Shown: in pieces, positions 4,245 through 56,392 of the stretch
How positions within the stretch are numbered: position 1 is the first letter of the stretch
Layout: each line of letters starts with the position of its first letter
Source of the DNA: a virus
Lineage: Duplodnaviria > Heunggongvirae > Uroviricota > Caudoviricetes
Virus record (IMG/VR): IMGVR_UViG_3300024298_000005
Reading direction: 5' to 3' (one strand)
DNA length: 64,000 nucleotides
The notes under the pieces: model-generated
Told to the model about the DNA's origin: nothing
Seen by the model: only the letters and a program-made list of their open reading frames with translations
Databases searched by the model: none
Position numbers and translations under genes: made by a program

Positions 4245-5519
4245 TTAATGAAATTGTTCTTCCTCTGTGCTACCAACTAGTGCTTGAGTAGAAGCATCTG
4301 CTTCGATGGTTGTAGTAACACGATCAAAATATCCTGTTCCTACTTCTCTTTGATGTTTTACTGCCTCAAACCCTAATGCCTGATTTGCAAATTCTTGCTC
4401 TTGCATTTTTACAAAAGCGGTCATTCCTTCTCGGGCATATCCATGTGCTAATTCAAACATACCGTTGTTTAAATTATGGAATCCGGCAAGAGTAATAAAT
4501 TGAAACTTATAACCCATCGCACCTAATTCGCGTTGAAACTTTGCAATGGTTGCATCGTCTAGGTTCTTCTTCCAGTTAAATGATGGCGAGCAGTTGTAGG
4601 CTAACATTTTACCTGGATGGTGTTTGTGTACTTCTTCTGCAAATCTTCTTGCGAAATCAAGATCAGGTTTCCCTGTTTCACACCATACAAGATCGGCGTA
4701 GGGTGCGTAGGCAACGGCTCTTGAGACTGCTTGTTCAAATCCGTTCTTTGTACGATAAAATCCTTCAACGGTTCTTTCGCCAGTAAGGAAAGGACGATCA
4801 TTATCATCAACATCACTAGTGATAAGATCGCCTGCTTCGGCATCAGTACGGGCAATAACCAAAGTAGGCACGCCCATGACATCAGCAGCAAGACGAGCAG
4901 CAACCAATTTGTTAATAGCTTCTCTTGTTGGTACAAGTACTTTTCCTCCCATATGTCCGCATTTTTTTACTGAGGCTAACTGATCTTCAAAATGTACACC
5001 GGCTGCACCGGCTTCGATCATAGCTTTCATTAATTCAAATGCATTTAACACTCCGCCAAACCCAGCTTCGGCATCGGCAATTATTGGAGCATAAAAATCT
5101 TGTTCTTTGCCTTCGCTCCAAGCAATCTGGTCTGCTCTTCGAAATGTATTATTAATCTTACGAACTACTGACGGGACCGAGTTAGCTGGATACAAACTTT
5201 GATCAGGGTACATTTCTCCTGCTAAATTAGCATCGCCTGCTACCTGCCATCCTGATAGATAAATTGCTTTTAATCCTGCTTTAACTTGTTGTAATGCTTG
5301 CATACCTGTTAAGGCACCAAGTGTATTAATATAATCTTCTGTGTGAAGAAGTTTAAATAATTTGTTTGCTTGTTCAACAGCGAACTGGCTCGGATGTATT
5401 TTGCTGCCTTGTAGGCGTACTACATCCTCTGCTGTGTAAGGTCGTTTAATACCGTTCCATCTTGGGTTTGTGGCCCAATCTTGTTGTAGTTCTTGCTGTC
5501 TCTGTGTACGTTGGTCCAT
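4245..5519 (-). CDS. aceA: isocitrate lyase
   Basis: signature KKCGHMGGK; 424 aa, colinear with bacterial ICL. Confidence 0.9.
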
Positions 5520-9961: not shown

Positions 9962-12900
9962 TTATAATATTCTCTCGCCAATGATGTTGTAGCCTGTTGT
10001 GCTACCGTTGTCACTACGCATGAATGTAATGCGATAGATACGACCTGCCGCCTTATCCTGTAGTGTAACGGTAACGGTATCACCAGCGGCATCCATACCG
10101 TGTAGATTATACAATGTAGTCCAGGCAGAAGTAGATACGATTGTGCCAGTGCTACCTGCTTGAGCAACGGCTGCACCATTGATAGCACCCACACCAGTCC
10201 AAGCAAGATTTCTTGACGAACCGTTGCCAATAACCTGTGGGAATATACCCCCTTGATTGCTGATGCGGAAACGCATATTATCCAAGGTAATCTCAGTATC
10301 TATGGCTGCGTTGTATGCCGTTCTTGATACTGACGGTGTTCTCGATGTAAAGGTTGCGTCAGTGTTAAATGTAACACCCGTGCTGCTCATTGTCAGCACA
10401 TTGGTATACGAACTGCTCGAACGGAACTGGAATGATCCTTGAGTTGATCCACCAATGCTAACGTCAAAGTACATATTGGTACTACCATTCTTCAAGTTAC
10501 GAAGAGCGCCTTCGTTAGGCATTTGTAGTGCAACGCCACTGACAGCATTATCTCCAGCAATGAACGCTGTGGTAGCATTAGCTGTTACACTACCGCTGTT
10601 GGCCACTAGATTCTTACCGATGTTTACACTTGATCCAGATCCGCTGTTATATTGAGTTCCAATACTAATATCACTACTATCTAAACTATTGATCCATAAT
10701 GTTCCACTGCTGGTATGAATATGAAGGTTGCCGTCGTCAAAAAGTTGTCCGTGTGTGCCAATATTGAGAGTCTTATTAGTAGCAGAGTTATTAGTTACAC
10801 TTGTTGTTCCTGGAATCGTTAAGACACCAGCACCCGATAAGGTAAGAAGTGTAACTGGGGCGTTGGAACCAGCAAAGCCTAATCCGTCGCCAGCATACCA
10901 ACCAAAGTTGAAGTTAGGGCCTTGAACAGAGGACCATAAGGTATCAGTTGACATACCGATAGCACAATCCATTTTATTCACTGCTATATCTGGATTGAAT
11001 AATATTCTGGTTCCTGTAGATCTATCAGTTACGGTAGGAGCCCCATAGACATTGTTAAAGTCTATTCTACTATAAGTAGAACCGTTAATATAAAGTTGTG
11101 CACCTGTTCCGTGTGTTGCGGTTCCCGTTTTACTACTAGTAATAGTTCCACTAGTTGTTAAACTTGTTAGTGTGCCAACACTGGTTAAACTTGAAGTTAC
11201 TACGGTTGAATTTAATGTTGTGCCGGTTAGTGTGCCCGCGGCCGCTGTAATAGTAGCACTTGCACCTAGTGCGATACTTGTGCCATTAATCGTTACTGAA
11301 CTATTTGCCAACTTAGAATTGGCAATAGATCCTGCCAGCATTGTGTTTGTGACCGTGCCGGTGTCGGTGGTATAAACACCATTGGTTACGGTATCGGCAT
11401 TGCCGGTATAAGCGGTGCTCTGTGTGGTATTATCTGGAAATGTTAAACTACCAGTAGTTCCAAATGTCCAATCTTTTAATGGGGATGTTCCGGTTTCAAT
11501 GATCAATCCAGACGGACTTCTAAACTTATTTGTATTGCTTAGTATTAAACTGCCGGAAGCATCAAATCCTAATACGCCAGTAAAACCACTTGCTGAAATA
11601 CTATTAACGGTAATAGTGCCGCTTCCACCTAAAGAAATGCTTGTGCCATTGACAGAGATACTGCTGTTTGCTAATGCGCTATTTGGAACGGAACTTAGTC
11701 GTGCATTAGGTAATGTTCCGCTGGTAATATTAGAAGCATTTGTTGTATCTGTGGTAGCACTCGTAGCTAACCCAGTAATCTTGCTTGTGGCAATACTGCC
11801 TGCTAACATAGCATTTGTAACCGTGCCGGTATCGCCTGTAGTAATCAGTGTGCCAGTTGTTCCTGGCATTGTAACGGTTGTTGTACCAGCTATTGCACTA
11901 GGCCTTAATTGTGTTGTGCCGCTAGTGCTACCAGCAAATGTAATCCATGCCATTCCGCCAAGTGTAGTTGACGAACTGCCTAATGATATTGATGTAGTAC
12001 CAATGGTAACAGAGCTATTAGACAAACTCGAGTTGGCAATGTTGGTAATAGTATTACTTGAGCCACTAATGTTTTTACTAGTTAAAGTTTCAGCACCTGT
12101 CTTAGTTGCATAACCTGTTAGTGTTGGGCCAGTGATGGTGATATTGCCTTCAGCATCACTGGATGTTGTAATATTATTAGCTCCTATAAACTTAATTGTT
12201 TCTTGACTACTAATAGTTTTTAATGAACTATCATCGGCTGCTACATTAAATGTAAATTGTGCCGGTATTGCTGCGGCGGTAATGTATCCGCTGTCGTTGG
12301 CTAATTGGCTTACATTTGTAGGTATAGTTGGCTTATTAGTTAAGTCTGTATAACTACCACTAAAGATTGTAGGGGTCCCAGTTAACTTGCTGTAGGCTAG
12401 ACTTGTTATCCACGCTGGATTTGCGTATGTGCCTGTGGTATAAACACCGTTGGTCACCGTATCGGCATTGCCGTCAATACTTACACCTGTTAGTGTTTGG
12501 CTAGCACTTGATCTGTTTAGGGCAATACTGGTTGTACCAACATAGGTAGTATCTGCTCTACGTGCTATAGTATTATCAACTGCTACGGTAACTGCTGTGC
12601 TACCATCATAACTTGTTCCGCTGAGTCCTGTGCCAATAGTTAGTGCATTAGGATTTACTGCGGTGATAGTAATAGCAGCAGAACCATCAAAATTTATTCC
12701 GTTGATAGCACGAGCAGTTCCTAATTTAGTTGCTGTTGCGGCATTACCCGAGCTAGTAATATATCCTTGGCTAGTAACATAAGTCTGTGTAGCATAGGTC
12801 AATAGCGTAGACGACAGCGAGCTATTAGTTACATAAGATGTTAGGTTAGGCGGTGTAAATGTAAACACCCCCGAAGTATTGTTGTAACTTAAACTTCCTC

Positions 12901-14116
12901 CACCGCTGGCTGAAGCATTCGATGCTGATAAGTCAGTGAGTCCAATACCACTACCACCACTGCCTACTAGGTCAGCTGCTGGTTGCCATATGCTAAGGCT
13001 GGCATTATATTTTAAGACTTGACCGTCTGTGGCTCCCACGGTAGTCACATCATCTAAACTATTTAAAGTTGTTAATATTGTAGGCTTGCTGGTAACATCG
13101 CTCCAACTAACAGACCCAGTCCAAGCTGTAGTCTGTGTTGTGTTGTCACTGAATGTTAGTTGTTTAGATAGTTTAACTTCTGTTTCACTAAAGCGAACAA
13201 CTTCCTTATTGCCTGCTGATGCATCACCTGCAATAATCTTAGTATAGGTATTGGCAATACTTGTGCCAAGTACTAAGTTACCACCGCCAGCATTACCTCC
13301 TTGCACATACAACCATCCATCACGCTGTCCTACATTATCATATAAACTATTCTCTGCTGTGCCGTCCCAACTTGCTCCGTTAATACCTAAATCAATATAG
13401 TAGTCTGTGTCGCTACCGTTTGGACTTGTTGCTACCCATTCTGTACTTGCGTGATTGCCATCGTTAGTATTTTGAAAGTTGTTCTGTGCGTAGTCGTTAA
13501 CCTGCGCTTGACTTTGGATAACGGTGTTAGGTAGTGCAGCTACACCTGCGGCGCGGCCTGCAAATATAGCAGTGAAACCTTCAGCATCACCTGGTAATAC
13601 TCCTGTGGCATGCAGTTTATTGTTAGTATCAAAGTCAATGGTATCTAGATCAAAGCTACTAGAAGTTACATATCCGCTATCGTTAGTAAAGGAACTAACT
13701 ACGCTAGGAATGCCTGCCGATGTAATGTATCCACGAGTAGTTACATAAGTTTGTGTAGCATAACTAGATAAGGCGCTTGAAGTAATGTATCCGCTATCGT
13801 TAGTAAATGCTGAGACTGCTGTGGGTGCATTTGAAATACTAGCATATGGAACGGTACCCACACTGATAACTTGATTAGCAATGTTAATAGTGGTGCCGTC
13901 AATTTTAACACCACCTTTTACGGTAGTTGTTGCTGTGGGTAATGTATAAGTTCCCCCGCCTGTTCCTCCGCTGACAACGGTTCCCCCTGGTGTTACTCCA
14001 TCGGAAATACGTAAAATACCCGTATCTTCGTCGTAAAATAGTTGTCCGTGAGCACCAACGTAAAATTCTACGTCTTGGCCAGGTATACGCCCAGATTTAA
14101 TCTTTTGAATAGTCAT
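9962..14116 (-). CDS. tail fibre protein (1384 aa, repeat-rich)
   Basis: Gly/Thr/Ser-rich; repeated FTNDSGY(I/V)TS and TYATQTYVT motifs; size typical of long tail fibres. Confidence 0.8.
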   Translation of the reverse strand: MTIQKIKSGRIPGQDVEFYVGAHGQLFYDEDTGILRISDGVTPGGTVVSGGTGGGTYTLPTATTTVKGGVKIDGTTINIANQVISVGTVPYASISNAPTAVSAFTNDSGYITSSALSSYATQTYVTTRGYITSAGIPSVVSSFTNDSGYVTSSSFDLDTIDFDTNNKLHATGVLPGDAEGFTAIFAGRAAGVAALPNTVIQSQAQVNDYAQNNFQNTNDGNHASTEWVATSPNGSDTDYYIDLGINGASWDGTAENSLYDNVGQRDGWLYVQGGNAGGGNLVLGTSIANTYTKIIAGDASAGNKEVVRFSETEVKLSKQLTFSDNTTQTTAWTGSVSWSDVTSKPTILTTLNSLDDVTTVGATDGQVLKYNASLSIWQPAADLVGSGGSGIGLTDLSASNASASGGGSLSYNNTSGVFTFTPPNLTSYVTNSSLSSTLLTYATQTYVTSQGYITSSGNAATATKLGTARAINGINFDGSAAITITAVNPNALTIGTGLSGTSYDGSTAVTVAVDNTIARRADTTYVGTTSIALNRSSASQTLTGVSIDGNADTVTNGVYTTGTYANPAWITSLAYSKLTGTPTIFSGSYTDLTNKPTIPTNVSQLANDSGYITAAAIPAQFTFNVAADDSSLKTISSQETIKFIGANNITTSSDAEGNITITGPTLTGYATKTGAETLTSKNISGSSNTITNIANSSLSNSSVTIGTTSISLGSSSTTLGGMAWITFAGSTSGTTQLRPSAIAGTTTVTMPGTTGTLITTGDTGTVTNAMLAGSIATSKITGLATSATTDTTNASNITSGTLPNARLSSVPNSALANSSISVNGTSISLGGSGTITVNSISASGFTGVLGFDASGSLILSNTNKFRSPSGLIIETGTSPLKDWTFGTTGSLTFPDNTTQSTAYTGNADTVTNGVYTTDTGTVTNTMLAGSIANSKLANSSVTINGTSIALGASATITAAAGTLTGTTLNSTVVTSSLTSVGTLTSLTTSGTITSSKTGTATHGTGAQLYINGSTYSRIDFNNVYGAPTVTDRSTGTRILFNPDIAVNKMDCAIGMSTDTLWSSVQGPNFNFGWYAGDGLGFAGSNAPVTLLTLSGAGVLTIPGTTSVTNNSATNKTLNIGTHGQLFDDGNLHIHTSSGTLWINSLDSSDISIGTQYNSGSGSSVNIGKNLVANSGSVTANATTAFIAGDNAVSGVALQMPNEGALRNLKNGSTNMYFDVSIGGSTQGSFQFRSSSSYTNVLTMSSTGVTFNTDATFTSRTPSVSRTAYNAAIDTEITLDNMRFRISNQGGIFPQVIGNGSSRNLAWTGVGAINGAAVAQAGSTGTIVSTSAWTTLYNLHGMDAAGDTVTVTLQDKAAGRIYRITFMRSDNGSTTGYNIIGERIL

Positions 14117-16598: not shown

Positions 16599-17801
16599 AT
16601 GATAAACAAAGAACCTTTTAAAAAACTATTGCAGGATCTTAAAGCATCAGGAAAATATCGTGTTTTTAATGATATTGTTAGAGAAGCTGGAAAATTTCCT
16701 ACAGCTATTTGGTACGGGCCTTATAACATTAAGAACATAGTAAACTGGTGTTCAAACGATTATTTGGGCATGGGCCAGCATAAAGTTGTGCTAGATGCTA
16801 TGCACACCGCTCTAGATCACACAGGATCTGGTTCAGGAGGCACTCGCAATATTGGCGGGTCTAGTCACTATCATAAAGCCTTAGAACACGAGCTTGCCAC
16901 TCTGCATAATAAACAGAGCAGTTTATTATTCAGCTCTGCATATGTGGCCAACGAATGGACTCTTATTGCTCTAAGCAAGATTGTGCCTAATATTCATTTT
17001 ATCAGCGATAGTAAAAATCACAATAGTTTAATTATAGGAATGAGTCATAGTCGAGCTCCTAAACAAATATTTGAACACAATAACCTAGAAGATTTAGAAA
17101 GCAAATTAGTTGCTGCTACACTTGCTGGCCATACTCCTTGTATTGTTTTTGAAAGTGTATATTCTATGGATGGTGATGTTGGAGACATAAGAGGAATTTG
17201 TAATCTAGCAGACAAATACAATGCTATCACTTACATTGACGAAGTACATGCGGTAGGGCTATACGGTGAGCGCGGCGCTGGTAAATTAGAAGAGTTAGGG
17301 TTCCAGGACCGAGTTGACATAGTTAACGGAACGCTTGGTAAAGCGTATGGTGTCCAAGGTGGATATATTGCTGCCGATGCAGATGTAATTGATGCTATCC
17401 GATCAGTGGCTGCAGGGTTCATTTTTACTACGTCTATGAGCCCTGTTACCTGTGCCGGTGCGTTGGCTGCAATCAAATACTTAAAAGAGCATAACGAAGT
17501 TCGAGAGAAACATCAAGAACGTGCTCGTAAATTAAGACATAGATTAAAGAAAGCAGGAATTCCTGTTATGGAATGTTCCACCACTCATATTATTCCTGTG
17601 CTTGTTGGAGATGCTAAGAAGTGTAAAGCAATGAGCGATATGCTGTTAAATGATCACAACATCTATGTTCAACCAATTAACTATCCTACGGTTGATGTAG
17701 GTACTGAAAGATTACGATTTGCACCCACTCCATATCACGACGACGGAATGATTGAAGATTTAGTCATTGCTCTTACTGCGGTGTTTAATAAATTTGATTA
17801 G
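16599..17801 (+). CDS. hemA: 5-aminolevulinate synthase (Shemin pathway, PLP-dependent)
   Basis: NYLGMGQHK ... [10 protein letters not shown] ... TLGKAYG PLP-lysine motif; colinear with ALAS. Confidence 0.85.
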
Positions 17802-18654
17802 TCTTTAAGTAATTAAAATATTCTTTAATACCTTGATCTATATTAAAGAATCCTTTAACATCAACACCAGCATCCTCTAAAAACTGGACTGATGCACAGG
17901 TGTATTCTTGATATTGTTCTTTAAGATCATTTGGCATGTCAATAGATATTTTTGTGCCATATCCAATCTCTTGTAAGCAAAGATCTGCAACTCGATCAAA
18001 ACTTACAGCATTACCAGTACCAAGGTCGTAGAGACCTTCTTTATAATTGTTAATAAAATGATGTACGGTTTTAGCCACATCTTCGACATATATAAAATCT
18101 CTTAGATAATTTTCTGAGTTGTTGAATATTTTTAAAATTAAATTGTTTTCTAATTGACGGTACCAATGAAAGGGCGTACTAGCCATACGACCTTTGTGAT
18201 ATTCATTTGGTCCGTAGACGTTGAATAATCGAAGTATTACACCATTAGTTATTTCTTGTTCGCAGGTAAGTTTACTAAAAGCATAGTGGTTAACAGGACC
18301 GTTTCCGTTGCCGTATACTGCTGCGCTTGACATGAATATAAACTTTTTTCCGTAATGCTTACAAAGGTCGTGCCATCTTCTTGTACTAACAATATTGGAT
18401 TCGTAGATGCTAGACCAATCTCTTTCTAGTGTACTTGCATTTGCTCCGCAATGGATAACACAATCGAACGCAGATAGATTGTCTATAATTTCTTTAGTAG
18501 AGTATAGTCCTTTATATTTTTTGCCAATTAAATTTTTATATTGATCTCCATAAGGCATATCATCAAAGAGGTAAACATCTTCGATTCCTTGTTTATTAAG
18601 ATAACCTAAAATATAACTTCCAATAAAGCCTGCTGCTCCTGTGAGTATAATCAT
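17785..18654 (-). CDS. hldD: ADP-L-glycero-D-manno-heptose 6-epimerase
   Basis: [13 protein letters not shown] Rossmann start, ...SSAAVYG; close to E. coli HldD over N-terminal 120 aa; start set at internal Met giving ATGA overlap. Confidence 0.75.
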
Positions 18655-19427
18655 AGTATTTCCTCTAATGTTGGTGCATAACATCCAACGTGCTGTACCG
18701 TAATTGATGATGCATTGTTGGCAAACTCTAATGCTTGCATCATATTTTCTGTTTCTAAAAATTTGTAGGTCAATGCAGCTAAGAAAGTATCGCCTGCTCC
18801 TGTTACATCAACCAATGGAACTTTTTTAGGGGTTAGTTTATTATCCAAATATTGAACCCCATCTTCGCCAAGAGTAACAATTAACCATTTGCTGTTTGGT
18901 AATGTAATAGCCTTGCTTTTTTCTAATTCATTTATTTTTACATAACAGCCTTCGAACCTAACAAGGTCTGTTTTTTTAGTGTCAATGAAAATAGGTCCTT
19001 TGTATTCTTTTCTAATTTCTTCAACAAGTTCGTAGGTAATGGTTCCTTTGTTATAATCGCTGATTACTATTGCATCATAAAAATTAGGAATAGGAGTATC
19101 AAACCTAATAGGATCACTTTTCTTATCTCTATCAATTCGAACTATCTGTTGTTTACTGCGTCGATCGATAAGTCTTTCTTTTTCGCTAGTTTCCCCGTAG
19201 AGGAAATTTACATTGCACCCAAGTGCTTCTAAATTTTCTCTAACGTTGTCGGCCATACCCGCTTTGTAAGTATGTCCATGTGGATTGAACACAGGTATTG
19301 GAGCTTCAGGACTAATCCTATTCACACTTCCGTATGTGTAAATGTCTGTACCTTTATCCCCTATCAATAATATCCTGTATTGTTTTGGAAGTTGAGTGAT
19401 TTGTTCGTTCATAAAATAATATTTCAT
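18651..19427 (-). CDS. PfkB-family sugar kinase (HldE kinase-domain-like, heptose-7-P kinase candidate)
   Basis: PfkB signature DVTGAGDTFLAAL; GGGAGA RBS before Met at 19427. Confidence 0.65.
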   Translation of the reverse strand: MKYYFMNEQITQLPKQYRILLIGDKGTDIYTYGSVNRISPEAPIPVFNPHGHTYKAGMADNVRENLEALGCNVNFLYGETSEKERLIDRRSKQQIVRIDRDKKSDPIRFDTPIPNFYDAIVISDYNKGTITYELVEEIRKEYKGPIFIDTKKTDLVRFEGCYVKINELEKSKAITLPNSKWLIVTLGEDGVQYLDNKLTPKKVPLVDVTGAGDTFLAALTYKFLETENMMQALEFANNASSITVQHVGCYAPTLEEIL

Positions 19428-19752
19428 TGCAGTATTCTTCTCCCACAATCGATCTATTGCGGTAGTCACTGCCTTTTACCATAGTTACAGGCCTAATGCT
19501 TTTAATTATTGAGATAAGTTCTTCTTCAGTATTGAAAATCTTAACATCATCTACAGATTTTAAATTCTGTAACATAAGCATACGATCCCATTGATCGTTA
19601 ATAGGGCGGCCCGGCCCTTTAAGAAAATTTACACGAGCATCGCTGTCAATACAAACTAGCAAACGATCGCCAACAGACTTTGCATAGTTTAATAATTCTA
19701 TGTGTCCTCTATGCAATATATCAAAAGTTCCATTGACTATTATTTGTTTCAT
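19354..19752 (-). CDS. cytidylyltransferase-like nucleotidyltransferase (HldE domain-II-like, heptose-1-P adenylyltransferase candidate)
   Basis: GTFDILHRGH (H/T-x-G-H) motif. Confidence 0.7.
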   Translation of the reverse strand: MKQIIVNGTFDILHRGHIELLNYAKSVGDRLLVCIDSDARVNFLKGPGRPINDQWDRMLMLQNLKSVDDVKIFNTEEELISIIKSIRPVTMVKGSDYRNRSIVGEEYCNEILFYERTNHSTSKTIQDIIDRG

Positions 19753-20372
19753 GGTAACGAGTTAACAAAACTTGCAAGATCGTCAAATATAATAGTTCGA
19801 CGCTTTAATTCTCTGTAAGTGAATTTGTTTAATTCTTTTTCTGTTTCAAGGCCATAACCTGTTCTAACTAACACAGGTTTTGAACCCATCTTAACTGCTG
19901 CTTTAAGATCTTTAATCTTATCGCCTACATAATAACCTTGATTAAATTTAATATCTGGAATTTCTTTTTCACATCTCTTAAACATTCCAGTATTTGGTTT
20001 TGCAAACGGATCATCTTTACGTGAGCTAGCAGAATAATATATTGCATCGATACTAGAACATCCTGCCTTGCCAAACAAATCTAGCATATGTGTGTGCAAT
20101 GTATCTACTTGTTCTTGTGTATAGATACCCTTTTCAATTCCCCCTTGATCTGTAATGATTACAATCTTATAACCTTTACGTCTAAGTTCAGCAACTGCAT
20201 CAACGCTGCCAGGAATTGGATCAAAATCTTCAACACGATAACAATAGGTACCTAGATCGCGATTAATAACTCCGTCACGATCTAAGCCTATTACACACTT
20301 TGTTCTAAACTCGCCACCAGTCCAGGTAATCTTAGGCTGGTTGTTCTGTGGCTGGTTGTTCTGTTGTTGCAC
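19749..20372 (-). CDS. gmhB: D,D-heptose 1,7-bisphosphate phosphatase (HAD-IIIA)
   Basis: GLDRDGVIN motif and HAD fold spacing. Confidence 0.7.
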   Translation of the reverse strand: MQQQNNQPQNNQPKITWTGGEFRTKCVIGLDRDGVINRDLGTYCYRVEDFDPIPGSVDAVAELRRKGYKIVIITDQGGIEKGIYTQEQVDTLHTHMLDLFGKAGCSSIDAIYYSASSRKDDPFAKPNTGMFKRCEKEIPDIKFNQGYYVGDKIKDLKAAVKMGSKPVLVRTGYGLETEKELNKFTYRELKRRTIIFDDLASFVNSLP

Positions 20373-20733
20373 TTTGGCTGTCTCCGGGAATGATTCGATA
20401 GTTATCCTCTACACTATCTGCTGTACTAACTTCAAATATCATTGAGTTTGGTACAAGAGCAATAAGTTGATGAGGCATCATAGGAGGGTTATGCCAAGTA
20501 TCACCTTCATTTAAGAATTTTTCGTGATAGGTTGCTGTTTTTGTGTCGCACCAAACCAATTTAAATTTTCCTGCGTTTACAAACCATGTTTCGTCTTTTT
20601 CTTTATGAAAGTGCATACTAAACTTAGCACCTGCTTTTTCAAAGACCATAATCTTACCGCAGTACTTGTCGTTGGTTGCCCAAATAATTTCGCAACCCCA
20701 TCCTTTATCTACTTTACCTTCTTGTCTTGTCAT
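20332..20733 (-). CDS. cupin-fold protein (sugar isomerase/epimerase-like)
   Basis: small beta-barrel-type sequence with His-rich motifs; within sugar-nucleotide cluster. Confidence 0.4.
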   Translation of the reverse strand: MTRQEGKVDKGWGCEIIWATNDKYCGKIMVFEKAGAKFSMHFHKEKDETWFVNAGKFKLVWCDTKTATYHEKFLNEGDTWHNPPMMPHQLIALVPNSMIFEVSTADSVEDNYRIIPGDSQSATTEQPATEQPA

Positions 20734-21320
20734 TATCGTTTCTCGATGATTTTGTCAACGAGTCCATATTCAAGAGCTTCTTGCGCTGACATAAACTTAT
20801 CACGTTCCATGTCGCGAGCAAACTCTTCGTAGGTCTTACCTTTTGAATTATGCTTAACATAAATCTCAGTAAGATTCTTTTTCATTTTTAAAATCTCTTC
20901 TGCTTGAATTTGAATATCTGTAGCTTGACCACGGGCGCCGCCGCTGGGTTGATGAATCATGTGACGAGCGTTTGGCAACATATAACGTTTACCTTCTGCT
21001 CCTGCTTGTGCTAACAAACTTCCCATTGAACAAGCCTGTCCCATAACGTAGGTAGCCACAGGGCATTTAATAAACTGCATTGTGTCATAAATGCTCATGC
21101 CTGCTGTAACAACACCACCTGGGCTATTAATAAACAGACTAATTTCTTTATCTGGATTTTCGCTTTCTAAAAATAATAGTTGTGCAACTACAATATTTGC
21201 CATGTGGTCTTCAACTTCACCTGTTAACATGACAATACGCTCTTTAAGTAATCTGCTATAGATATCGTATGCACGTTCGCCTTTTGATGTAGACTCAACT
21301 ACCATTGGTACTAAACTCAT
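20733..21320 (-). CDS. clpP: ATP-dependent Clp protease proteolytic subunit
   Basis: Ser (GQACSMGS), His (HQPSGG), Asp triad spacing; 195 aa. Confidence 0.85.
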
Positions 21321-22256
21321 TTATGCTTCCTTAATGTTAGAAATATTTTTTAGTTTAAGCTCTTCCATTAGGTCCGTCAACCATCGTAATACCTTTACAT
21401 TTGGTTTATAACCCAGTTCGGCTAATCTTGTAATATCTGCTTCTGTATTTGCTACTGCTCCAACACGTGGCGGAACAACTATTTGTCTATGACTAATAAT
21501 GTCTGCCAATTGTTTGATACTTACAGATTGGCCTGATCCTAAATTGAATACGTCTCCGTGTTCACCGTACTCTAGAACAATCATAAGACCTTTGATAACA
21601 TCACTAACATGAACAAAGTCTCTGCGTTGATCACCACCGCCGTGTAACAACAACGGTTGATTGGTTTCCCAGGCAGAAATAAACTTTGGAATCACTAATG
21701 CGTTTTTGCCAAAGTCCATAAAGTCTCCGTACATGGTAAAAGGTCTTATTATTATTAATTCTGTATCCCCAACAAGACTCTGCACGTGAAGTGCCCATTC
21801 TGCAGACATCTTGCTCACAGCATAAGGATTGGTTGGCATCAATTGGCTATCTTCTCGTTGTTTGATTGTACCGTTGTTTCCATACACTGAGCTAGAACTT
21901 ATATAAACAAATTTCCTTACACCCATAGTTTGGCATAAACTAAAAAATTTATGTGTTGCTGTTATGTTTACATTATAGTATTCAGCGTACTCATTCCAAC
22001 TAGGATCAATCCTAGATCGATTGGCCATATGAACAACAACATCAACTTCTTTAAGATGTTCTTTTAAAACTGGAATATCTTCTGTTATATCGCAATAATG
22101 TATTTGATTATTGTGCGACCACCCTTCTCGAACACTTTGGTCCCATAAGAACGGAGGTTTATCAATCAATACCGTTTCGTCAAACATTTGTTTTAAGAAT
22201 GGGGTAGCATTGCGTCCAAGAAACCCATTTGCTCCAGTGATCATTAATTTGCTCAT
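21321..22256 (-). CDS. NAD-dependent sugar epimerase/dehydratase (SDR family)
   Basis: ITGANGFLG Rossmann motif, YAVSK catalytic YxxxK. Confidence 0.75.
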   Translation of the reverse strand: MSKLMITGANGFLGRNATPFLKQMFDETVLIDKPPFLWDQSVREGWSHNNQIHYCDITEDIPVLKEHLKEVDVVVHMANRSRIDPSWNEYAEYYNVNITATHKFFSLCQTMGVRKFVYISSSSVYGNNGTIKQREDSQLMPTNPYAVSKMSAEWALHVQSLVGDTELIIIRPFTMYGDFMDFGKNALVIPKFISAWETNQPLLLHGGGDQRRDFVHVSDVIKGLMIVLEYGEHGDVFNLGSGQSVSIKQLADIISHRQIVVPPRVGAVANTEADITRLAELGYKPNVKVLRWLTDLMEELKLKNISNIKEA

Positions 22257-26523: not shown

Positions 26524-26703
26524 ATGAGTGGACGTGGATTTATTGCAGAAGAACTGCCAACCGTTTGTGAAATGTGCGGAAAGATAGACGAATGTCGTCC
26601 CTATGGTCCAAACGATGAGCAAATTTGTTTTGAGTGTGCTATGAAAGACGAAGAAACAACTCAAAAGAAAATGGCTGCTTATATTTTCGGAGTTGAAGAA
26701 TGA
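26524..26703 (+). CDS. small zinc-ribbon protein (CxxC...CxxC)
   Basis: hand translation MSGRGFIAEELPTVCEMCGKIDEC...ICFECA. Confidence 0.4.
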   Translation: MSGRGFIAEELPTVCEMCGKIDECRPYGPNDEQICFECAMKDEETTQKKMAAYIFGVEE

Positions 26704-26876
26704 TTAGACTAGTATTGGTATTTGCTTTTTTGGCAGCAGTCATCCATTTTACCATTACAACTTGGAGAAACATGACCGGAAAGGAACGTTGGTCGTTGAC
26801 AAAAACTCTAGGTTATAGTATAATTGTTTCACTGCTAGCAATAGTGGTAATGATGTTTATCGTAGTTTTATTTTAA
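26700..26876 (+). CDS. small membrane protein
   Basis: two hydrophobic helices; contains promoter for next gene. Confidence 0.35.
   Translation: MIRLVLVFAFLAAVIHFTITTWRNMTGKERWSLTKTLGYSIIVSLLAIVVMMFIVVLF
26796..26824 (+). promoter_or_regulatory. consensus sigma70 promoter TTGACA-N17-TATAAT
   Basis: perfect hexamers, 17-nt spacer, upstream of SPFH lipoprotein gene. Confidence 0.6.
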
Positions 26877-26887
26877 GGACACACACA

Positions 26888-27682
26888 ATGAAGCGTATTG
26901 CAACTCTTTCTATCCTTGCCGCGGCTATTTTGGCCACTGGCTGTACTCGTATTGAAACTGGTGAAGTTGGTCTGCGGGTCGGCTTTGACAAACAAGTTAA
27001 GAATGATGAGCTCTTGCCTGGCAGTTTTAATCAAACCATTATTGGAGATGTTCTTACATTCCCGGTTAAGGATGTTAACGTCAAACTGGATGACATGACT
27101 CCTATTGCCAAAGATAACAGCACAATGAAAGACTTTGATGCTATTGTTATCTATAGTTTGAACCAAGCACAGGTAGCAGAACTTTACAATACAAAAAGCA
27201 AAGCATTTCACGTTAAACATGACGGTGATACTTATCTAATGTTTAATTACATTTACAATGCTGCTCGTAATGCTATCTACAAAGAAGCACGTAAGTATGA
27301 AGCATTGGACATGGCGGACAATCGTCAGCAAATGGAAACTGCTATTAAAGAACAAATCCAAAAAACTCTTGTAGAAGAAAAATTGGATGGTTCAATTACT
27401 ATTACACAAGTTCTTGTTCGTAATGTTGTGCCAGCAGACTCCGTTGTAGAATCAGCCAATGCTCTTGTTCGTGCAAAGAATGAGTTCAAACAAAAAGAAG
27501 TTGAAGTGGCTACTGCTAAGAAAGAAGCAGAGCGTATGCAAGCTCTGAGCAATCAAGGCGCCCAATCAATTGCTTACATGAACGCACAGGCCGCACTTAA
27601 TATCTCAGAAGGTATTAAGAACGGTAAGGTACAGACAATTGTTGTTCCTAGCAACATGACTGGTTTGATGATTAACAAGTAA
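26888..27682 (+). CDS. SPFH/band-7 (HflK/C-, prohibitin-like) lipoprotein
   Basis: signal peptide with lipobox LATGC; SPFH-like core; C-terminal coiled-coil. Confidence 0.6.
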   Translation: MKRIATLSILAAAILATGCTRIETGEVGLRVGFDKQVKNDELLPGSFNQTIIGDVLTFPVKDVNVKLDDMTPIAKDNSTMKDFDAIVIYSLNQAQVAELYNTKSKAFHVKHDGDTYLMFNYIYNAARNAIYKEARKYEALDMADNRQQMETAIKEQIQKTLVEEKLDGSITITQVLVRNVVPADSVVESANALVRAKNEFKQKEVEVATAKKEAERMQALSNQGAQSIAYMNAQAALNISEGIKNGKVQTIVVPSNMTGLMINK

Positions 27683-28200
27683 TGAAGATCTTCGGACGCT
27701 CAGGGGGCTACTACTTATTTTGGTGTAGTGCCCTCTACCTAGTGATAGGTATGCTAGATATATTTTTTATCGAAGCAGACCTATCACCGCAAATACAGAT
27801 AGCATGGTTATCTGTTCTAGTTGCTCCCTTTGTGTTTCCACCCTGGGGGCGTTGGTTTAATTTAGATATAAATTGGGATAAGAAAATGTTCAATTTGTTT
27901 GGCAAAAAAGATAAAGGCAATGTTGTAGACTTTCCTAAACTGGTAGAGCCTACAGAACCTAAACCAGAACCCAAAAAAGAAGAACCTGCTAAGATTTTTT
28001 ATCGCCTGGGCCTAACTGACAACAACCGTGTTAGTTTCCAAATGGGCTACAGCGAGATTACCATGAATAAGGCAGGTTGTCAACAAATGATTGATCAACT
28101 TGAATTCTTTAAAGGTCAACTCTACGACGACAACGACACAACCCCGCCCGATCCAGACGGCGGTGAACCAGTTCCAGTTCCAGAACAAAAGGCTGCGTGA
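27682..28200 (+). CDS. membrane protein with Pro/Glu-rich tail
   Basis: N-terminal TM helices, PEPKPEPKKEEP segment. Confidence 0.45.
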   Translation: MKIFGRSGGYYLFWCSALYLVIGMLDIFFIEADLSPQIQIAWLSVLVAPFVFPPWGRWFNLDINWDKKMFNLFGKKDKGNVVDFPKLVEPTEPKPEPKKEEPAKIFYRLGLTDNNRVSFQMGYSEITMNKAGCQQMIDQLEFFKGQLYDDNDTTPPDPDGGEPVPVPEQKAA

Positions 28201-28989: not shown

Positions 28990-29359
28990 ACTAAGTTGGA
29001 GTGTACTAGATCCAAAACCGGTTCTATTGTATATTAGAAATTCTGACGAATATATATGTTATTGGAACGGCATTGCTATGACACATACTATGGCTATGAA
29101 TATGGCTTTAGAACCGTTTGGTATCTTTGCTACTCCAGAAATGAAAACATCTATGGAACAGGACTATCGAAGAATCTATTATGCAGGAGGTTTCGATACT
29201 CGTGCTTGGGATTTTAAAGTTTCAGAAAGCCCAATATATCCATATGTAAAACGTTTAATGGCTGAACATATTAAAAAGACCATTGCTGAACAAAAACGTC
29301 CTATTGCAGAAGTATTAGGATGGTTTGATTATAGTAGGGCTCGAACAGATAATGATTGA
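28979..29359 (+). CDS. hypothetical protein
   Basis: GGAGA RBS before internal Met. Confidence 0.4.
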   Translation: MRSELSWSVLDPKPVLLYIRNSDEYICYWNGIAMTHTMAMNMALEPFGIFATPEMKTSMEQDYRRIYYAGGFDTRAWDFKVSESPIYPYVKRLMAEHIKKTIAEQKRPIAEVLGWFDYSRARTDND

Positions 29360-29948
29360 AGATATATTTGCTATTTCAATATATAGAACAAAATATAAAG
29401 ATAACATTGTTGAATTACAAAACAATGTTATCCCCCTTCTTGAGCCTGTCTTTGCTGAAACAATTAAAGACAATCAAGGTTCAATGAGGAACGGTGGATT
29501 ATGCTCTTATAATGTTGTACGCAATTTACAATCAATGCCCGAACTACAAGGGTTATTAGAATTTTTAACAGAACATGTTAATGCATATTGGCAACATTTA
29601 AATTATTCAGGAAAACCTGCTATTGTTGAGATGTGGGCCAATCGATATGCTCCAGGGTCATTTATCGATACGCACAATCATAGTCCAGTTCCGTTAACAT
29701 CAAGTTTTTATCTTAAGAAAAATAAAGATTCGGGCAATCTTGTTTTTGAACACCCAAATGAAGTAATACTTAAACATCAACCATATTCATTTAACAATAG
29801 AAGTTCATATCACCAGTTGTTTGATTACGAAGTGCCTGTTGAAGAAGGAGACCTTGTTATCTTTCCTTCATATCTAAGACACAAGACTATGCCCAATCAA
29901 TCTACAGAAGATAGAATTATTATTGGTACAAACATATTCGCTGTATGA
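29352..29948 (+). CDS. 2OG-Fe(II) oxygenase superfamily protein (TIGR02466-like)
   Basis: HNH..., C-terminal VIFPSYLRHKT motif; paralog of 22868, 33094, 55829. Confidence 0.65.
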   Translation: MIEDIFAISIYRTKYKDNIVELQNNVIPLLEPVFAETIKDNQGSMRNGGLCSYNVVRNLQSMPELQGLLEFLTEHVNAYWQHLNYSGKPAIVEMWANRYAPGSFIDTHNHSPVPLTSSFYLKKNKDSGNLVFEHPNEVILKHQPYSFNNRSSYHQLFDYEVPVEEGDLVIFPSYLRHKTMPNQSTEDRIIIGTNIFAV

Positions 29949-32455: not shown

Positions 32456-32689
32456 TTAAGCTACCTGAGCAACTGCGTAGATCGCGTTGACTAAAAGTGT
32501 TTTAGTATCTAGGTCAGTGGCTTCTGCATCAAGTCTATCTGCTCGAACTAGGTCTAACATTAGTTCTCGATATTCATCCGCTGATATACCACCCTGTTGA
32601 TATTGGCCAGCAATTTCCAAGGCCATTTGAGCTCTTTGTGCTGCCCAACTTGGGCCATTGGCTGCTAGATGTTGTAGGTGTTCAAACAT
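32456..32689 (-). CDS. hypothetical protein
   Basis: 77-aa ORF. Confidence 0.4.
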   Translation of the reverse strand: MFEHLQHLAANGPSWAAQRAQMALEIAGQYQQGGISADEYRELMLDLVRADRLDAEATDLDTKTLLVNAIYAVAQVA

Positions 32690-33078
32690 TAGAATCTCCC
32701 AAGGATACTAGCTGCGGCACGCTCTGCTTGTGCTGCCATTAGTTTCTTTTTAATTTCACAATAGACCTTAGAACCCTGTTGTGTCTGTGCTCGAGTAACC
32801 ATGTCTCCTACGGTTTCCTGTAAGGGTTTGATAATGTTAATAACATCCTGATGTCTACGACCAGCGGATTGGCTGTATAATTCAAACCAACGTAGATCCT
32901 GTTGTATCTTTAGTACCTGTGGTAACTGCTCTTGAGAGCAGTCCAAACGATCAATGTCTGCACGAACATCGATTATTCTAGAACTTTGATTAGGATCCGA
33001 AAAACTAGGAATCATGCCTACTAGGCTTGAGCAGCCAGAAAGCATGAAAACACATACTAGAGCAATTAGTCTATTCAT
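32689..33078 (-). CDS. lipoprotein
   Basis: signal peptide with lipobox LSGC. Confidence 0.5.
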   Translation of the reverse strand: MNRLIALVCVFMLSGCSSLVGMIPSFSDPNQSSRIIDVRADIDRLDCSQEQLPQVLKIQQDLRWFELYSQSAGRRHQDVINIIKPLQETVGDMVTRAQTQQGSKVYCEIKKKLMAAQAERAAASILGRF

Positions 33079-37438: not shown

Positions 37439-37515
37439 CACGCATTAGCTCAGTTGGATAGAGCAACAGCCTTCTAAGCTGTGGGTCAGGGGTTCGAATC
37501 CCTTATGCGTGGCCA
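37439..37515 (+). tRNA. tRNA-Arg (anticodon UCU), CCA encoded
   Basis: cloverleaf folded by hand: acceptor CACGCAT/ATGCGTG, D GCTC/GAGC, anticodon loop CUUCUAA, T-loop TTCGAAT. Confidence 0.8.
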
Positions 37516-37519
37516 GTTA

Positions 37520-37597
<78 letters not shown>

Positions 37598-51580: not shown

Positions 51581-51808
51581 ATGAGCATACAACTACACGG
51601 ACTGACCCGCCAGCAGTATCAGATCGCTGACATGATCTGGAGCTGTGAATCACAAGAGGATGTTCAACGCTTGATCAATAACCTGCCCGCAGAGTATAAG
51701 AAGGACGCTGTGGTCATACACGATCTAATGATAGCAGCAGTCATGGACCAACATATGGAGATCACTGAAGATGTTCGTGCGCTTATTCATAGTATTGCTA
51801 GCCGCTAG
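51581..51808 (+). CDS. hypothetical protein
   Basis: 75-aa ORF. Confidence 0.4.
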   Translation: MSIQLHGLTRQQYQIADMIWSCESQEDVQRLINNLPAEYKKDAVVIHDLMIAAVMDQHMEITEDVRALIHSIASR

Positions 51809-52139
51809 CTTAACAGCCTGCACAGCCTTTAGGGATCCACGTGATGCTGCGTGGGATCCTAGGCAGGATCAAGGTCGTTACCTTCACGAACAGATTCCAA
51901 ATTGGCAGCATGAAGCCCTCAGAGTCTGTGGTGGTGGTGACCGAGTGAGGAGACCTGGTATGACCGATCGGTGTTGATGGTCGGTCGGTGGTCGGTGGTG
52001 AGGGGTAACATATGTTAGTAAGTACTAACAAGCTAGTAAGGGGTAGCAAATCACCACCCTGAAAAGAAAAGTACTGCCCTTAAAAATTTTGCGCGGCCAA
52101 TTTTTTCCCCTGTAGACCCATTTTGCTGTAAATACACTC

Positions 52140-53522: not shown

Positions 53523-53729
53523 ATGCCACAGGCCTATAAAATCATGGCACGTAACACTAGAACAGGTGTCAGAATACAAAAACAATTTCTAGATGGAGCC
53601 ACCGTCACAAACTATGATATGGCTCTAGAACACGCTCAAGATCTAGCTCAGCGTCAAAGTTCACGCAGTCGCGAAACTTGGGTGGGCGAAGTAGAAATCT
53701 ACACCGTGGGCAACAAGCCCGGTCAGTGA
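53523..53729 (+). CDS. hypothetical protein
   Basis: AGGAGCAATC ATG. Confidence 0.4.
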   Translation: MPQAYKIMARNTRTGVRIQKQFLDGATVTNYDMALEHAQDLAQRQSSRSRETWVGEVEIYTVGNKPGQ

Positions 53730-54157
53730 TACATATAGTTCACTGAATCTTCATTTTCCCTAAATGTCTCGGCCCCGTTTTTATGATGAAAACGTCGGGC
53801 CATTTCTGTCTTTGGACTTAGAGTAACAAAGGTCTTGACTTCGGGGCTGTTTTCTTTGATGTCTGCCTGTGCTTGTGTGATCAACTCACGACCTGCACCT
53901 GCGGCATAGCTCCAAATGGTATAGAACACAGCAGTGGTAGAGTTTACTGCTAGATTGGCTAGATCATCAACATTCTTAGGAATGTCTGCTAGAAACTTAA
54001 CACAGGTCACAGCCAAAGGACGGTTTTCTTCATCTTTGAGTACATAGACCTTGCCGTGTTCGTCAACTCGAAAGTCCGCAGGAATTTCTGGACGCACAGG
54101 ATCGTCTTTGAGTAGGCTCAATAGTTCTTCGTTGATGGTGGTGATTTTTTCTAGCAT
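53723..54157 (-). CDS. GNAT-like acetyltransferase (tentative)
   Basis: AAGAGRELI resembles GNAT motif A (R/Q-x-x-G-x-G/A). Confidence 0.4.
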   Translation of the reverse strand: MLEKITTINEELLSLLKDDPVRPEIPADFRVDEHGKVYVLKDEENRPLAVTCVKFLADIPKNVDDLANLAVNSTTAVFYTIWSYAAGAGRELITQAQADIKENSPEVKTFVTLSPKTEMARRFHHKNGAETFRENEDSVNYMYH

Positions 54158-54212: not shown

Positions 54213-55106
54213 ATGTTTTACCAGATAAGTATGCTTATGACAGAACCGAGATTATTCATTACCGGCGATAGCTTTGCCATATTTCCCAAAGATCCTGATC
54301 CAGTGAAAAATTGGGGACTGCTCTTAGCTGACCTGTTGGGTCAGGAATTAGGACAGACCCTACAGGTGGTCAATAACAGCCTTATGGGCTGTGCTCAAGA
54401 TTGGAATTGGCTGAGTCTTCAAAATTGGTACGAACATACAATCACAGAACATGACTATGTGGTCATAGCTCTAACTCATCCTAGCCGTCAGTGGTTCTTT
54501 GAAAACAGCCCTGAAATTGCCAATGCTAATCTAATTGATCTAGATCGTTGGGTCACTCGAGAGCAGGCCAAGACCGTAGAGCTGTTTATCAAATACATGC
54601 AACGTCCTAGTTTAGATCTAATAGCAGTTCAAAATCGTTTGGCCTATTTGGCCTATATGACTAGACTTAAGGGTCTAAGGCCGCCTGTGATTATGAAATG
54701 TTTTACACAGGAATTTGGACAGGCCAATACGTGGCCAGATCTTAAGATTGCTCAGGGTGATCTAATGAACATACAACGTTATGAGTTTGAGGACATAGAC
54801 ATAGATATTCGTTCGGATTTTTGGAAAGGACTAGACAGCAGGTACAATCATCTGTGTAGATCCAATCACACCATCCTAGCTCAAAAGGTCTTTGACACCC
54901 TAACCAAAGGCGCAGAGTTAGATCTTACCACAGGGTTTATTCAAGGTCTGCTTAAAAACAATACTCTTGATGACCTAGACTTTGTTCAACGAGAATTGGA
55001 TTATCCTACGTTTCTAAAAAATCGTGAAAAGCTCAAAAAGAGCCGTGGTCCAATACTGCCGTGGAAAACCAGAGTTAATATCCAAACCGGACAGGATGAT
55101 GCTTGA
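54213..55106 (+). CDS. SGNH/GDSL-family hydrolase
   Basis: N-terminal FITGDSFA block-I motif. Confidence 0.55.
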   Translation: MFYQISMLMTEPRLFITGDSFAIFPKDPDPVKNWGLLLADLLGQELGQTLQVVNNSLMGCAQDWNWLSLQNWYEHTITEHDYVVIALTHPSRQWFFENSPEIANANLIDLDRWVTREQAKTVELFIKYMQRPSLDLIAVQNRLAYLAYMTRLKGLRPPVIMKCFTQEFGQANTWPDLKIAQGDLMNIQRYEFEDIDIDIRSDFWKGLDSRYNHLCRSNHTILAQKVFDTLTKGAELDLTTGFIQGLLKNNTLDDLDFVQRELDYPTFLKNREKLKKSRGPILPWKTRVNIQTGQDDA

Positions 55107-55132
55107 CACCTGCTGTTAATCTTAGTATAATA
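55104..55132 (+). promoter_or_regulatory. sigma70 promoter TTGACA-N17-TATAATAc
   Basis: consensus, same extended form as early-region promoters. Confidence 0.55.
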
Positions 55133-55151
55133 CATAGACAAGGAGACCACA

Positions 55152-55832: not shown

Positions 55833-56392
55833 ACGAATATGTTTTATTCCCTACAATAGTTAGGGAATACGATTTCAGCAAGGACCCAGATTTTCATGTC
55901 CTTGCTGATTTTGTTTCTAAACAAAAAACAGAACCACATAGACTAGTAGGCTGGGCAGAAAGCAGTTACGGTGTAGGCCGTAGTCTTTTTGATAATTTTA
56001 TTCTCAAAGGCATACGACAAAAACTACAGGCCGCTGTTGATGCATATATCATTGAACTTGGTATAGCACCAGTTAAAATAACCAATAGTTGGTTTAATAA
56101 ACTAGGTCAACATCAACGTGTAGAAACTCATAGACATGAATTAAGTGTTGTGTCAGGAGCATTCTATGTTCATGCAGATCCCGGTAGTGTGGGACTAAAA
56201 TTATTCAGTCCTTTGGCACAACTTCGTATGTACGAACAGATTGTAAATCACAATGCTGTTAATGCTAATTTTATTGAAATGGAATGTTGTACAGGTCAGC
56301 TAATTTTATTTCCTAGCTGGATAGAACACGGAACCGATAATAATCAAACCGATAGTAGAATTACGGTTAGTTTTAATACAGAATATTGTTAG
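55829..56392 (+). CDS. 2OG-Fe(II) oxygenase superfamily protein (TIGR02466-like)
   Basis: HRHE ... ILFPSWIEHG; paralog. Confidence 0.65.
   Translation: MNEYVLFPTIVREYDFSKDPDFHVLADFVSKQKTEPHRLVGWAESSYGVGRSLFDNFILKGIRQKLQAAVDAYIIELGIAPVKITNSWFNKLGQHQRVETHRHELSVVSGAFYVHADPGSVGLKLFSPLAQLRMYEQIVNHNAVNANFIEMECCTGQLILFPSWIEHGTDNNQTDSRITVSFNTEYC

Follow-up and report, generated by a model that had tools for sequence, protein, structure and literature searches.

The 64,000-nucleotide stretch of virus record IMGVR_UViG_3300024298_000005 (IMG/VR; Caudoviricetes), referred to below as the window, encodes an SPFH/Band_7 lipoprotein and a seven-transmembrane (7-TM) protein of the BI-1/TMBIM family (Table 1). 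We favour, with modest confidence, the view that these genes provide two independent, early, membrane-directed functions in host takeover. A preliminary description of this DNA had presented the two proteins as joint modulators of the host protease FtsH, the first like HflK/C and the second like YccA, each under a perfect sigma-70 promoter. Both open reading frames (ORFs) proved to be as described. The reading that we favour builds on family membership, lipobox conservation, synteny with a small hairpin gene, promoter statistics and purifying selection, and extends from there to predicted localisation, oligomerisation, channel activity and early timing.

The SPFH protein matched the Pfam Band_7 model (PF01145) with 65.1 bits against a cut-off of 23.6 (E 1.1e-17), residues 21-214 covering model positions 2-176 of 176, and matched phrog_200, annotated 'lipoprotein', in PHROG (E 1.2e-32). 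Its N-terminus, MKRIATLSILAAAILATGC, carries a lipoprotein signal (residues 1-18) and the lipobox LATGC, with predicted lipidation at Cys19; a core (~21-180), a long helix (184-244) and a C-terminal beta-strand motif, QTIVVP, complete the layout. Cys19 was invariant in 30 close homologues, and most close homologues retain the lipobox. A lipobox was present in 74 of 82 full-length family representatives, the Cys lying 2-5 residues before the first SPFH strand (.ETG.VGV). The description of this product as an SPFH lipoprotein thus holds. An exhaustive search of 1.84 billion cluster representatives returned only 342 clusters at E < 1e-3; the family is a small, distinct branch of the superfamily.

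Members from cultured phages were found in Ackermannviridae (Vi01; CBA120 orf126), in T4-like and other Acinetobacter phages, in a Schitoviridae phage and in cyanophages. The phrog_200 lipoproteins of such phages (CBA120 orf126, Vi01, AbTZA1 gp059 and S-CREM1_131) are 29-47% identical to the window protein, measure ~265 amino acids and share its lipobox-SPFH-helix-strand layout, with a small two-helix ORF directly upstream. The window protein is set apart from them in a very large metagenomic clade that is 77-92% identical internally. In the literature, the role of phage phrog_200 proteins is given as 'unclear' (PMC13239085), and that of phage SPFH lipoproteins is called 'unclear' or speculated to be related to lysogeny (PMC13239085, PMC8540360).

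An SPFH fold was indicated both by structure comparison and by profile search. The top 43 Foldseek matches in the PDB of the AlphaFold2 (AF2) model, which is of low confidence (predicted local distance difference test, pLDDT, 53), were all SPFH proteins: HflK/C (3.6e-5), prohibitin, stomatin, erlin, flotillin and QmcA, with 9cz2, 7wi3 and 8z5g among the entries matched. The same pLDDT 53 model superposed on the stomatin SPFH domain with a root-mean-square deviation of ~3 A over ~100 residues. What had been described as a coiled-coil tail appears in this low-confidence model as the one long helix. A profile of 82 family sequences reached the PDB structures of stomatin (1.2e-7), prohibitin (3.9e-6), HflK (1.2e-4) and QmcA (1.7e-3). 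It was the only sequence search to do so, phmmer with the protein itself and a shallow 30-sequence profile both giving nothing meaningful against the PDB. The stomatin alignment took in the long helix together with a 'vvvP' strand at the C-terminus; in recent cryo-electron microscopy structures, SPFH cages are closed by these elements.

These comparisons do not single out HflK and HflC, as the preliminary description had done. Scores against the E. coli paralogues showed no real difference (HflK, 22.7 bits; QmcA, 21.1; HflC, 18.0), and no NCBIfam family, HflK and HflC included, was matched at E <= 0.1. With HflK and HflC the phage protein shares the superfamily, a periplasmic domain (predicted in the phage) and a long helix plus C-terminal segment that would suit a cage. 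HflK and HflC are a hetero-pair with transmembrane (TM) helices, whereas the phage protein is the product of a single gene, the only SPFH ORF in the window, and has a predicted lipid anchor; it is no closer to them than to stomatin or QmcA, and its family profile ranks stomatin and prohibitin higher.

Directly upstream of the SPFH gene lies a conserved partner that was absent from the preliminary description, a 58-residue membrane protein with TM1 at ~3-21, a basic loop (R..TGKE+W.LTK) and TM2 at ~37-58. Of 83 related loci, 74 have this hairpin gene immediately 5' of the SPFH gene. All 54 distinct sequences from these relatives are 58 residues long without indels, despite identities of 29-95%, and omega is ~0.34. 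Two-helix ORFs also precede the SPFH gene in more distant genomes (Table 1): the adjacency was found in 8 of the 9 other lineages examined, spanning at least four phage families and metagenome loci, and the position is kept in Ackermannviridae, Straboviridae, Schitoviridae and Kyanoviridae. At one metagenome locus (L190), a hairpin-like ORF of 54 residues lies two genes 5' of the SPFH gene.

No family was assigned to the hairpin protein in Pfam, PHROG or NCBIfam. NfeD was rejected as an identity, the 58-residue protein and 36 homologues having no NfeD Pfam match and being too short for an OB domain; so was YjeT/DUF2065 (hhalign probability 0.3%), and PHROG offered no candidate. In E. coli K-12 (L179 2039-4584) yjeT, the gene for a 65-residue DUF2065 small membrane protein, comes after hflK and hflC. 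The hflKC-yjeT arrangement is a positional parallel to the phage pair, without detectable homology between YjeT and the hairpin. The stomatin/NfeD and QmcA-YbbJ operons likewise place the gene of an SPFH ring-former beside that of a small membrane protein, which would lie within the ring. Stomatin is also the best profile match of the phage family, over helix and closing strand; NfeD, however, has an OB-fold domain and a Pfam match, neither of which is found in the hairpin, and the phage SPFH protein differs from those of both operons in being predicted to be periplasmic and lipidated. QmcA, by comparison, faces the cytoplasm.

Downstream, a further membrane-protein ORF of 172 residues begins at the SPFH stop codon. 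It matched no family in Pfam, PHROG or NCBIfam. Only 23 of 83 relatives have a homologue within 3 kb of the SPFH gene, and often the two are not neighbours; with so loose a link, we rejected this ORF as a third member, and it probably lies outside the core module.

The preliminary description had placed a consensus promoter before each of the two genes. Both are real and perfect, the second starting one base before the position given for it (55103, not 55104), yet they are not special to these genes. Perfect TTGACA-N17-TATAAT sites number 13 in the window against 0.01 expected from shuffled sequence; 12 of the 13 are on the + strand, where they are concentrated in regions rich in small ORFs, and the genes downstream are diverse (a ligase operon, an AAA ATPase, a primase and many small ORFs). 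The excess and the diversity of the genes served therefore identify a genome-wide promoter type for host RNA polymerase and not a specific mark of the SPFH and BI-1 genes. Such sites mark transcription units, probably early ones, of the host enzyme. In phage PA5oct, which depends on host RNA polymerase, 32 TTGAC/TATAATA promoters coincide with mapped transcription start sites (PMC7318152).

Conservation separates the two promoters. A match of at least 10 of 12 consensus bases within 250 nucleotides upstream of the SPFH gene was present in 55 of 83 relatives (66%), compared with 12% at random positions, whereas the corresponding figure for the BI-1 gene was 16 of 93, near the 12% background. 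Only for the SPFH gene, then, is strong dedicated transcription conserved. The promoter of this gene is embedded in the hairpin ORF: its -35 TTGACA shares bases with the Leu-Thr codons of the conserved LTK motif and its -10 TATAAT falls in the YSII codons, so the same bases are constrained both as protein and as promoter. Transcription is predicted to start near 26831, giving a leader of ~57 nucleotides.

The SPFH gene is under purifying selection (omega ~0.11), and its product is 77-92% identical across relatives in which neighbouring genes are 30-60% identical. This conservation bears on a rival explanation, that hairpin and SPFH protein, made early in the envelope, form a superinfection-exclusion or entry-blocking module shielding the inner-membrane or periplasmic route of incoming phage DNA, comparable to T4 Imm/Sp and T5 Llp, with BI-1 unrelated to it. 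A small membrane protein together with a predicted periplasmic lipoprotein, strongly promoted, is what the exclusion genes of T4 and T5 would lead one to look for, and the promoter conserved upstream of the SPFH gene in two-thirds of the relatives fits such a module. The lipoprotein Llp of T5 is one such precedent (PMC9586334). In CBA120, moreover, the pair comes directly after a phrog_1510 'superinfection exclusion' gene (orf127, then orf127A, the hairpin of 69 residues, then orf126, the SPFH lipoprotein; L183 1918-3235), although that label is annotation only. Exclusion proteins are, however, usually fast-evolving and lineage-specific, which contrasts with the identity and omega of the SPFH protein, and the phages in which the SPFH family occurs are quite unlike one another in receptor and host. 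We therefore regard exclusion as an unlikely explanation. An Rz-like spanin gene lies 2.4 kb upstream of the module in CBA120.

How the SPFH module would work under the reading of two independent functions can be outlined from its architecture. Host sigma-70 RNA polymerase would transcribe both the SPFH and the BI-1 gene from the promoter type that they share with at least a dozen other genes of the window. The hairpin would insert into the inner membrane, its basic loop predicted to be cytoplasmic by the positive-inside rule. The SPFH protein, judging from its lipobox, would be exported and lipidated at Cys19. By analogy with the architecture of its family, the 60-residue helix and the C-terminal strand may then build a homo-oligomeric ring or cage, similar to that of stomatin, at the periplasmic face of a membrane, fencing a patch that would hold the hairpin and a client protein. 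Candidate clients are a host quality-control protease, a component of entry or secretion, and a phage membrane protein. In the cyanophage members S-CREM1 and B23, an N-terminal TM anchor replaces the lipobox, which points to a possible action of the family at the periplasmic side of the cytoplasmic membrane. Such an anchor can sit only in the cytoplasmic membrane and so counts against placing the family in the outer membrane.

The second protein matched Pfam Bax1-I (PF01027) with 176.8 bits (cut-off 34.1; E 6.4e-52), and its AF2 model (pLDDT 72) is all-helical. Among solved structures it matched, by sequence (E 1.8e-10) and by fold, only Bacillus subtilis YetJ (BsYetJ). The 7-TM BI-1 assignment in the preliminary description was thereby borne out, and the protein did not group with unrelated transporters.

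Its affinity within the family is a different matter, YccA having been named as the relative. Among E. coli K-12 proteins the best match was YbhL, with 40.6% identity over the full length (E 1.7e-49), followed by YccA, with 26% over 133 residues (E 8.6e-9), and YbhM (E 2e-3). On the NCBIfam YccA equivalog (NF007765) the protein scored 25.3 bits against a cut-off of 353. Asp181 and Asp209 were invariant across 30 phage homologues and align with Asp171 and Asp195 of YetJ, the pH sensor. In a five-way alignment this aspartate pair was common to the phage protein, YbhL and YetJ, whereas YccA has Glu and Ser at these positions; the YetJ sequence used here agrees with the YetJ fragments in the structure-database match. 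With YccA, an FtsH substrate and modulator, the phage protein does share the Pfam family, the 7-TM layout and an N-terminal cytoplasmic tail. We conclude that its sequence is of the YbhL/YetJ type and not YccA-like. YbhL and YetJ are cellular genes and this one is carried by a phage; with YetJ it has in common fold, sequence and both pH-sensor residues, and channel activity is predicted.

BI-1 genes are common in uncultured freshwater jumbo phages. In INPHARED the protein was matched by eight short, unannotated records only and by none of the complete cultured phage genomes, and a scan of genome contigs for BI-1 gave only 9 loci. The true cellular homologues are alphaproteobacterial and at most ~45% identical, from which an old capture is deduced. 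BI-1 genes 70-74% identical were also seen on short contigs (L170-L172) binned to a betaproteobacterial metagenome-assembled genome (MAG) from Lake Erken and to a Crocinitomicaceae MAG; most likely they come from phage and were wrongly binned, and they are not evidence of a host. The neighbourhood of the gene varies between relatives, and in some it lies within an operon. Two 2OG-Fe(II) oxygenase genes (PF13759), a family typical of aquatic phage genomes, are present on the + strand of the window, at 29325-29948 and 55829-56392; the latter shows translational coupling with the end of the BI-1 gene, an arrangement that recurs on other contigs of this phage.

A cellular family in a variable neighbourhood, among genes resembling auxiliary metabolic genes such as these oxygenases, is what would be expected if BI-1, and with it the SPFH gene, were a passenger or moron without a role in infection, for instance a recent host capture. 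We consider this very improbable. Each gene occurs on hundreds of phage contigs (206 confirmed IMG/VR relatives for one and 391 for the other), and the distance of the closest true cellular BI-1 speaks for a capture long past. Both genes, furthermore, are under strongly purifying selection (omega ~0.14 for BI-1) and both have a consensus promoter and a Shine-Dalgarno sequence.

Confident fold matches of the BI-1 model in BFVD were proteins of giant viruses and of the betaherpesvirus US12 family. Poxvirus vGAAP and cytomegalovirus US21 are virus-encoded TMBIM cation channels that delay cell death (PMC4416878, PMC5451544, PMC10470750). Like the phage protein, these and the giant-virus BI-1 proteins are TMBIM members captured by viruses; they differ in that vGAAP and US21 belong to eukaryotic viruses and act on calcium in the endoplasmic reticulum and Golgi and on apoptosis, whereas the host of the phage is bacterial. 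Under the reading of two independent functions, phage BI-1 would be a pH-gated cation-leak protein of the YbhL/YetJ type that buffers stress on ion balance or membrane and lets the infected cell survive the long jumbo-phage cycle, and in that sense the bacterial-virus counterpart of vGAAP and US21. An anti-death role, for example against abortive infection, is our conjecture from this analogy. Our literature searches found no report of a TMBIM protein in a tailed phage.

Do the two proteins act together on FtsH? In this rival explanation, which we hold to be improbable, both would bind and tune host FtsH early in infection, the SPFH protein mimicking HflK/C and BI-1 mimicking YccA, and so control membrane proteolysis. 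SPFH scaffolds often pair with membrane proteases, as in HflK/C-FtsH, prohibitin-m-AAA and stomatin-NfeD. The SPFH domain is predicted to be periplasmic as in HflK/C, the cyanophage versions have an HflK/C-like N-terminal TM anchor, and the low omega of the SPFH gene fits a conserved host target. FtsH needs a cytoplasmic substrate tail of ~20 residues to start degradation, and the ~25 residues that precede TM1 of phage BI-1 would permit its engagement. YccA, FtsH and HflKC of E. coli are joined in one complex (Kihara 1998, as summarised in PMC7876416). The two phage genes are found together in at least three genomes of the clade, at least two IMG/VR contigs among them (3300017917_001123, 331 kb; 3300047274_000273, 138 kb).

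Against this stand the scores given above: BI-1 falls far short of the YccA equivalog cut-off, has YbhL as its closest E. coli paralogue and keeps the aspartate pair that YccA lacks, while the SPFH protein has no HflK or HflC match in NCBIfam, belongs to a family whose profile favours stomatin and prohibitin, and is encoded by a single gene with no K/C pair in the window. The SPFH protein also has no Lol-avoidance Asp at position +2, and an outer-membrane protein could not touch FtsH. Finally, the two genes are 27.5 kb apart, and SPFH-bearing cultured phages (CBA120, Vi01, AbTZA1 and BUCT-ZZ01 among them) have no BI-1 gene. This separation and the occurrence of SPFH without BI-1 are our grounds for treating the functions as independent. 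The genes are linked neither in synteny nor in regulation, the BI-1 promoter not being conserved in relatives, and the proposal that they act as a pair of FtsH modulators has not stood up. The step from family membership to joint FtsH modulation rests on analogy and was weakened by each test run. Among the possible clients of the SPFH protein FtsH is one, but not the one to which the evidence points.

A bolder version of the favoured reading, which we put forward as doubtful, would make hairpin and SPFH protein a widespread unrecognised device in which a palisade of hairpins replaces the TM helices of HflK/C and a phage-made cage, periplasmic on the host inner membrane, captures a conserved host machine, FtsH being the obvious candidate; in the same phage BI-1 would be the first TMBIM anti-cell-death factor of a tailed phage, acting for example against membrane-depolarising abortive infection, in parallel to vGAAP and US21.

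Several points weigh against the reading of two independent takeover functions. The AF2 model of the SPFH protein, with its one long helix at 184-244, was built from a shallow alignment of sequences 80-92% identical and is of low confidence. Position +2 of the lipoprotein is Thr and +3 is Arg, and no listed family member has Asp at +2. The E. coli rule for inner-membrane retention accordingly predicts sorting of the SPFH lipoprotein to the outer membrane, apart from the inner-membrane hairpin; this +2 rule is E. coli's and host-specific. Both the lipoprotein sorting rules and the 'early' timing are assumptions for this phage. In one lineage, that of Acinetobacter phage AM24, the hairpin is missing. 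From one phage family to another the hairpins, including those upstream of the phrog_200 lipoproteins, have no detectable sequence similarity, so that calling them the same partner rests on position and topology only. Literature searches gave no functional study of, or experiment on, phage SPFH or any phrog_200 protein, and found no functional study of YbhL or phage BI-1.

The phage itself has no close cultured relative as judged by INPHARED megablast, which gave no DNA-level match for either gene region. It is an uncultured freshwater jumbo myovirus and, by its DnaB helicase, whose nearest cultured relative is that of Pseudomonas jumbo phage PA5oct (51-53% identity), distantly PA5oct/Atu_ph07-like; its replication genes are akin to those of jumbo phages PA5oct, Atu_ph07 and Phosso, and one virion protein is akin to cyanophage proteins. 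Identical copies of the proteins were present on dozens of metagenome contigs, the longest reaching 219-223 kb. Homologues 67-92% identical were found on hundreds of IMG/VR contigs from lake samples, of up to 364 kb and always among phage genes. The heavy reliance on TTGACA/TATAAT and the affinity to PA5oct and Atu_ph07 suggest that the host is perhaps a proteobacterium. No mention of SPFH, Band 7, BI-1 or FtsH was found in papers about boreal jumbo phages or about the 'moraphage' lineage.

Table 1. Features of the window (IMGVR_UViG_3300024298_000005) and two-helix ORFs upstream of SPFH genes elsewhere
Feature	Position or genome	Strand	Remarks
Two-helix (hairpin) membrane protein	26700-26876	+	58 aa; conserved upstream partner of the SPFH gene
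SPFH promoter, perfect sigma-70 consensus	26796-26824	+	inside hairpin ORF 26700-26876
Shine-Dalgarno AAGGA, SPFH gene	26875-26879	+	8 nt before start codon; read from sequence
SPFH/Band_7 lipoprotein	26888-27682	+	264 aa; Pfam PF01145, phrog_200
Membrane protein	27682-28200	+	172 aa; ATG overlaps SPFH stop codon (TAATG)
tRNA-Arg(TCT) and tRNA-Met(CAT), adjacent	37439-37597	+	sole Rfam matches in window
BI-1 promoter, perfect sigma-70 consensus	55103-55131	+	20 nt before BI-1 start codon
Shine-Dalgarno AAGGAG, BI-1 gene	55140-55145	+	read from sequence
BI-1/TMBIM 7-TM membrane protein	55152-55832	+	226 aa; YbhL/YetJ-type; aspartate pair D181, D209
Perfect N17 consensus sites	23578, 26796, 30585, 36600, 38485, 39970, 42016, 43979, 45325, 47929, 49296, 55103	+	
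Perfect N17 consensus site	62518-62490	-	
Perfect N18 consensus site	54197-54168	-	sole perfect N18 site in window
Two-helix ORF directly upstream of SPFH	BUCT-ZZ01		58 aa
Two-helix ORF directly upstream of SPFH	CBA120 orf127A		69 aa
Two-helix ORF directly upstream of SPFH	AbTZA1		90 aa
Two-helix ORF directly upstream of SPFH	phiAB441		92 aa
Two-helix ORF directly upstream of SPFH	XC38		87 aa
Two-helix ORF directly upstream of SPFH	S-CREM1		53 aa
Two-helix ORF directly upstream of SPFH	B23		54 aa
Two-helix ORF directly upstream of SPFH	high-GC metagenome locus L191		63 aa

Other genes of the window were noted in passing. The perfect N18 promoter points away from the BI-1 region and drives an ORF of 144 residues (53723-54157, -), in which Pfam recognised a malonyl-CoA decarboxylase C-terminal-like domain (MCD, E 2e-7). 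The glyoxylate shunt is represented by an isocitrate lyase gene (4245-5519, -; Pfam ICL, E 5.9e-106), which is unusual as an auxiliary metabolic gene. At 16599-22256, genes for a class I/II aminotransferase, an NAD-dependent epimerase/dehydratase, a PfkB-like kinase and a phrog_540 nucleotide-sugar epimerase are clustered; these sugar-nucleotide and modification enzymes may act in the modification of DNA or of surface glycans. A carbamoyltransferase N-terminal-like domain (E 1.2e-25) is encoded at 60417-61361 (-), between primase and DnaB helicase. The 1384-residue ORF at 9962-14116 (-) matches cyanophage tail-fibre proteins in short patches only (5-7% coverage, 41-59% identity), and its product is probably a mosaic receptor-binding protein. 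Lipoprotein signals were also present in two further ORFs, of 68 residues (51771-51977, +; MFVRLFIVLLAASLTAC...) and 129 residues (32689-33078, -; MNRLIALVCVFMLSGC...), which may encode lipoproteins of the spanin type or of exclusion systems. None of the four proteins tested with PADLOC had a credible match to a defence system, and an Rfam scan of the window found no ybhL-leader RNA, the two tRNAs being its only matches.

Both protein families were already known, and the phage SPFH lipoprotein family had been catalogued. The novelty lies in the recurrent hairpin partner, the promoter inside the hairpin ORF, the identity of BI-1 as YbhL-type and not YccA, and the abundance of BI-1 in uncultured freshwater jumbo phages. 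Two over-specific Joint Genome Institute (JGI) labels, 'FtsH-binding integral membrane protein' and 'HflC', are corrected as a result. These data show no surprising mechanism; they provide a clean, testable lead, the SPFH and hairpin pair being present in tractable phages, namely CBA120 and Vi01 (E. coli, Salmonella) and the T4-like Acinetobacter phages. Among freshwater jumbo phages, both genes are conserved within a clade that is very abundant. If hairpin and SPFH protein do form a cage in the host envelope, they would represent a new class of phage takeover structure. If phage BI-1 delays host death, it would offer the first functional handle on the YbhL branch, and viral capture of TMBIM proteins would extend from eukaryotic viruses to bacteriophages.

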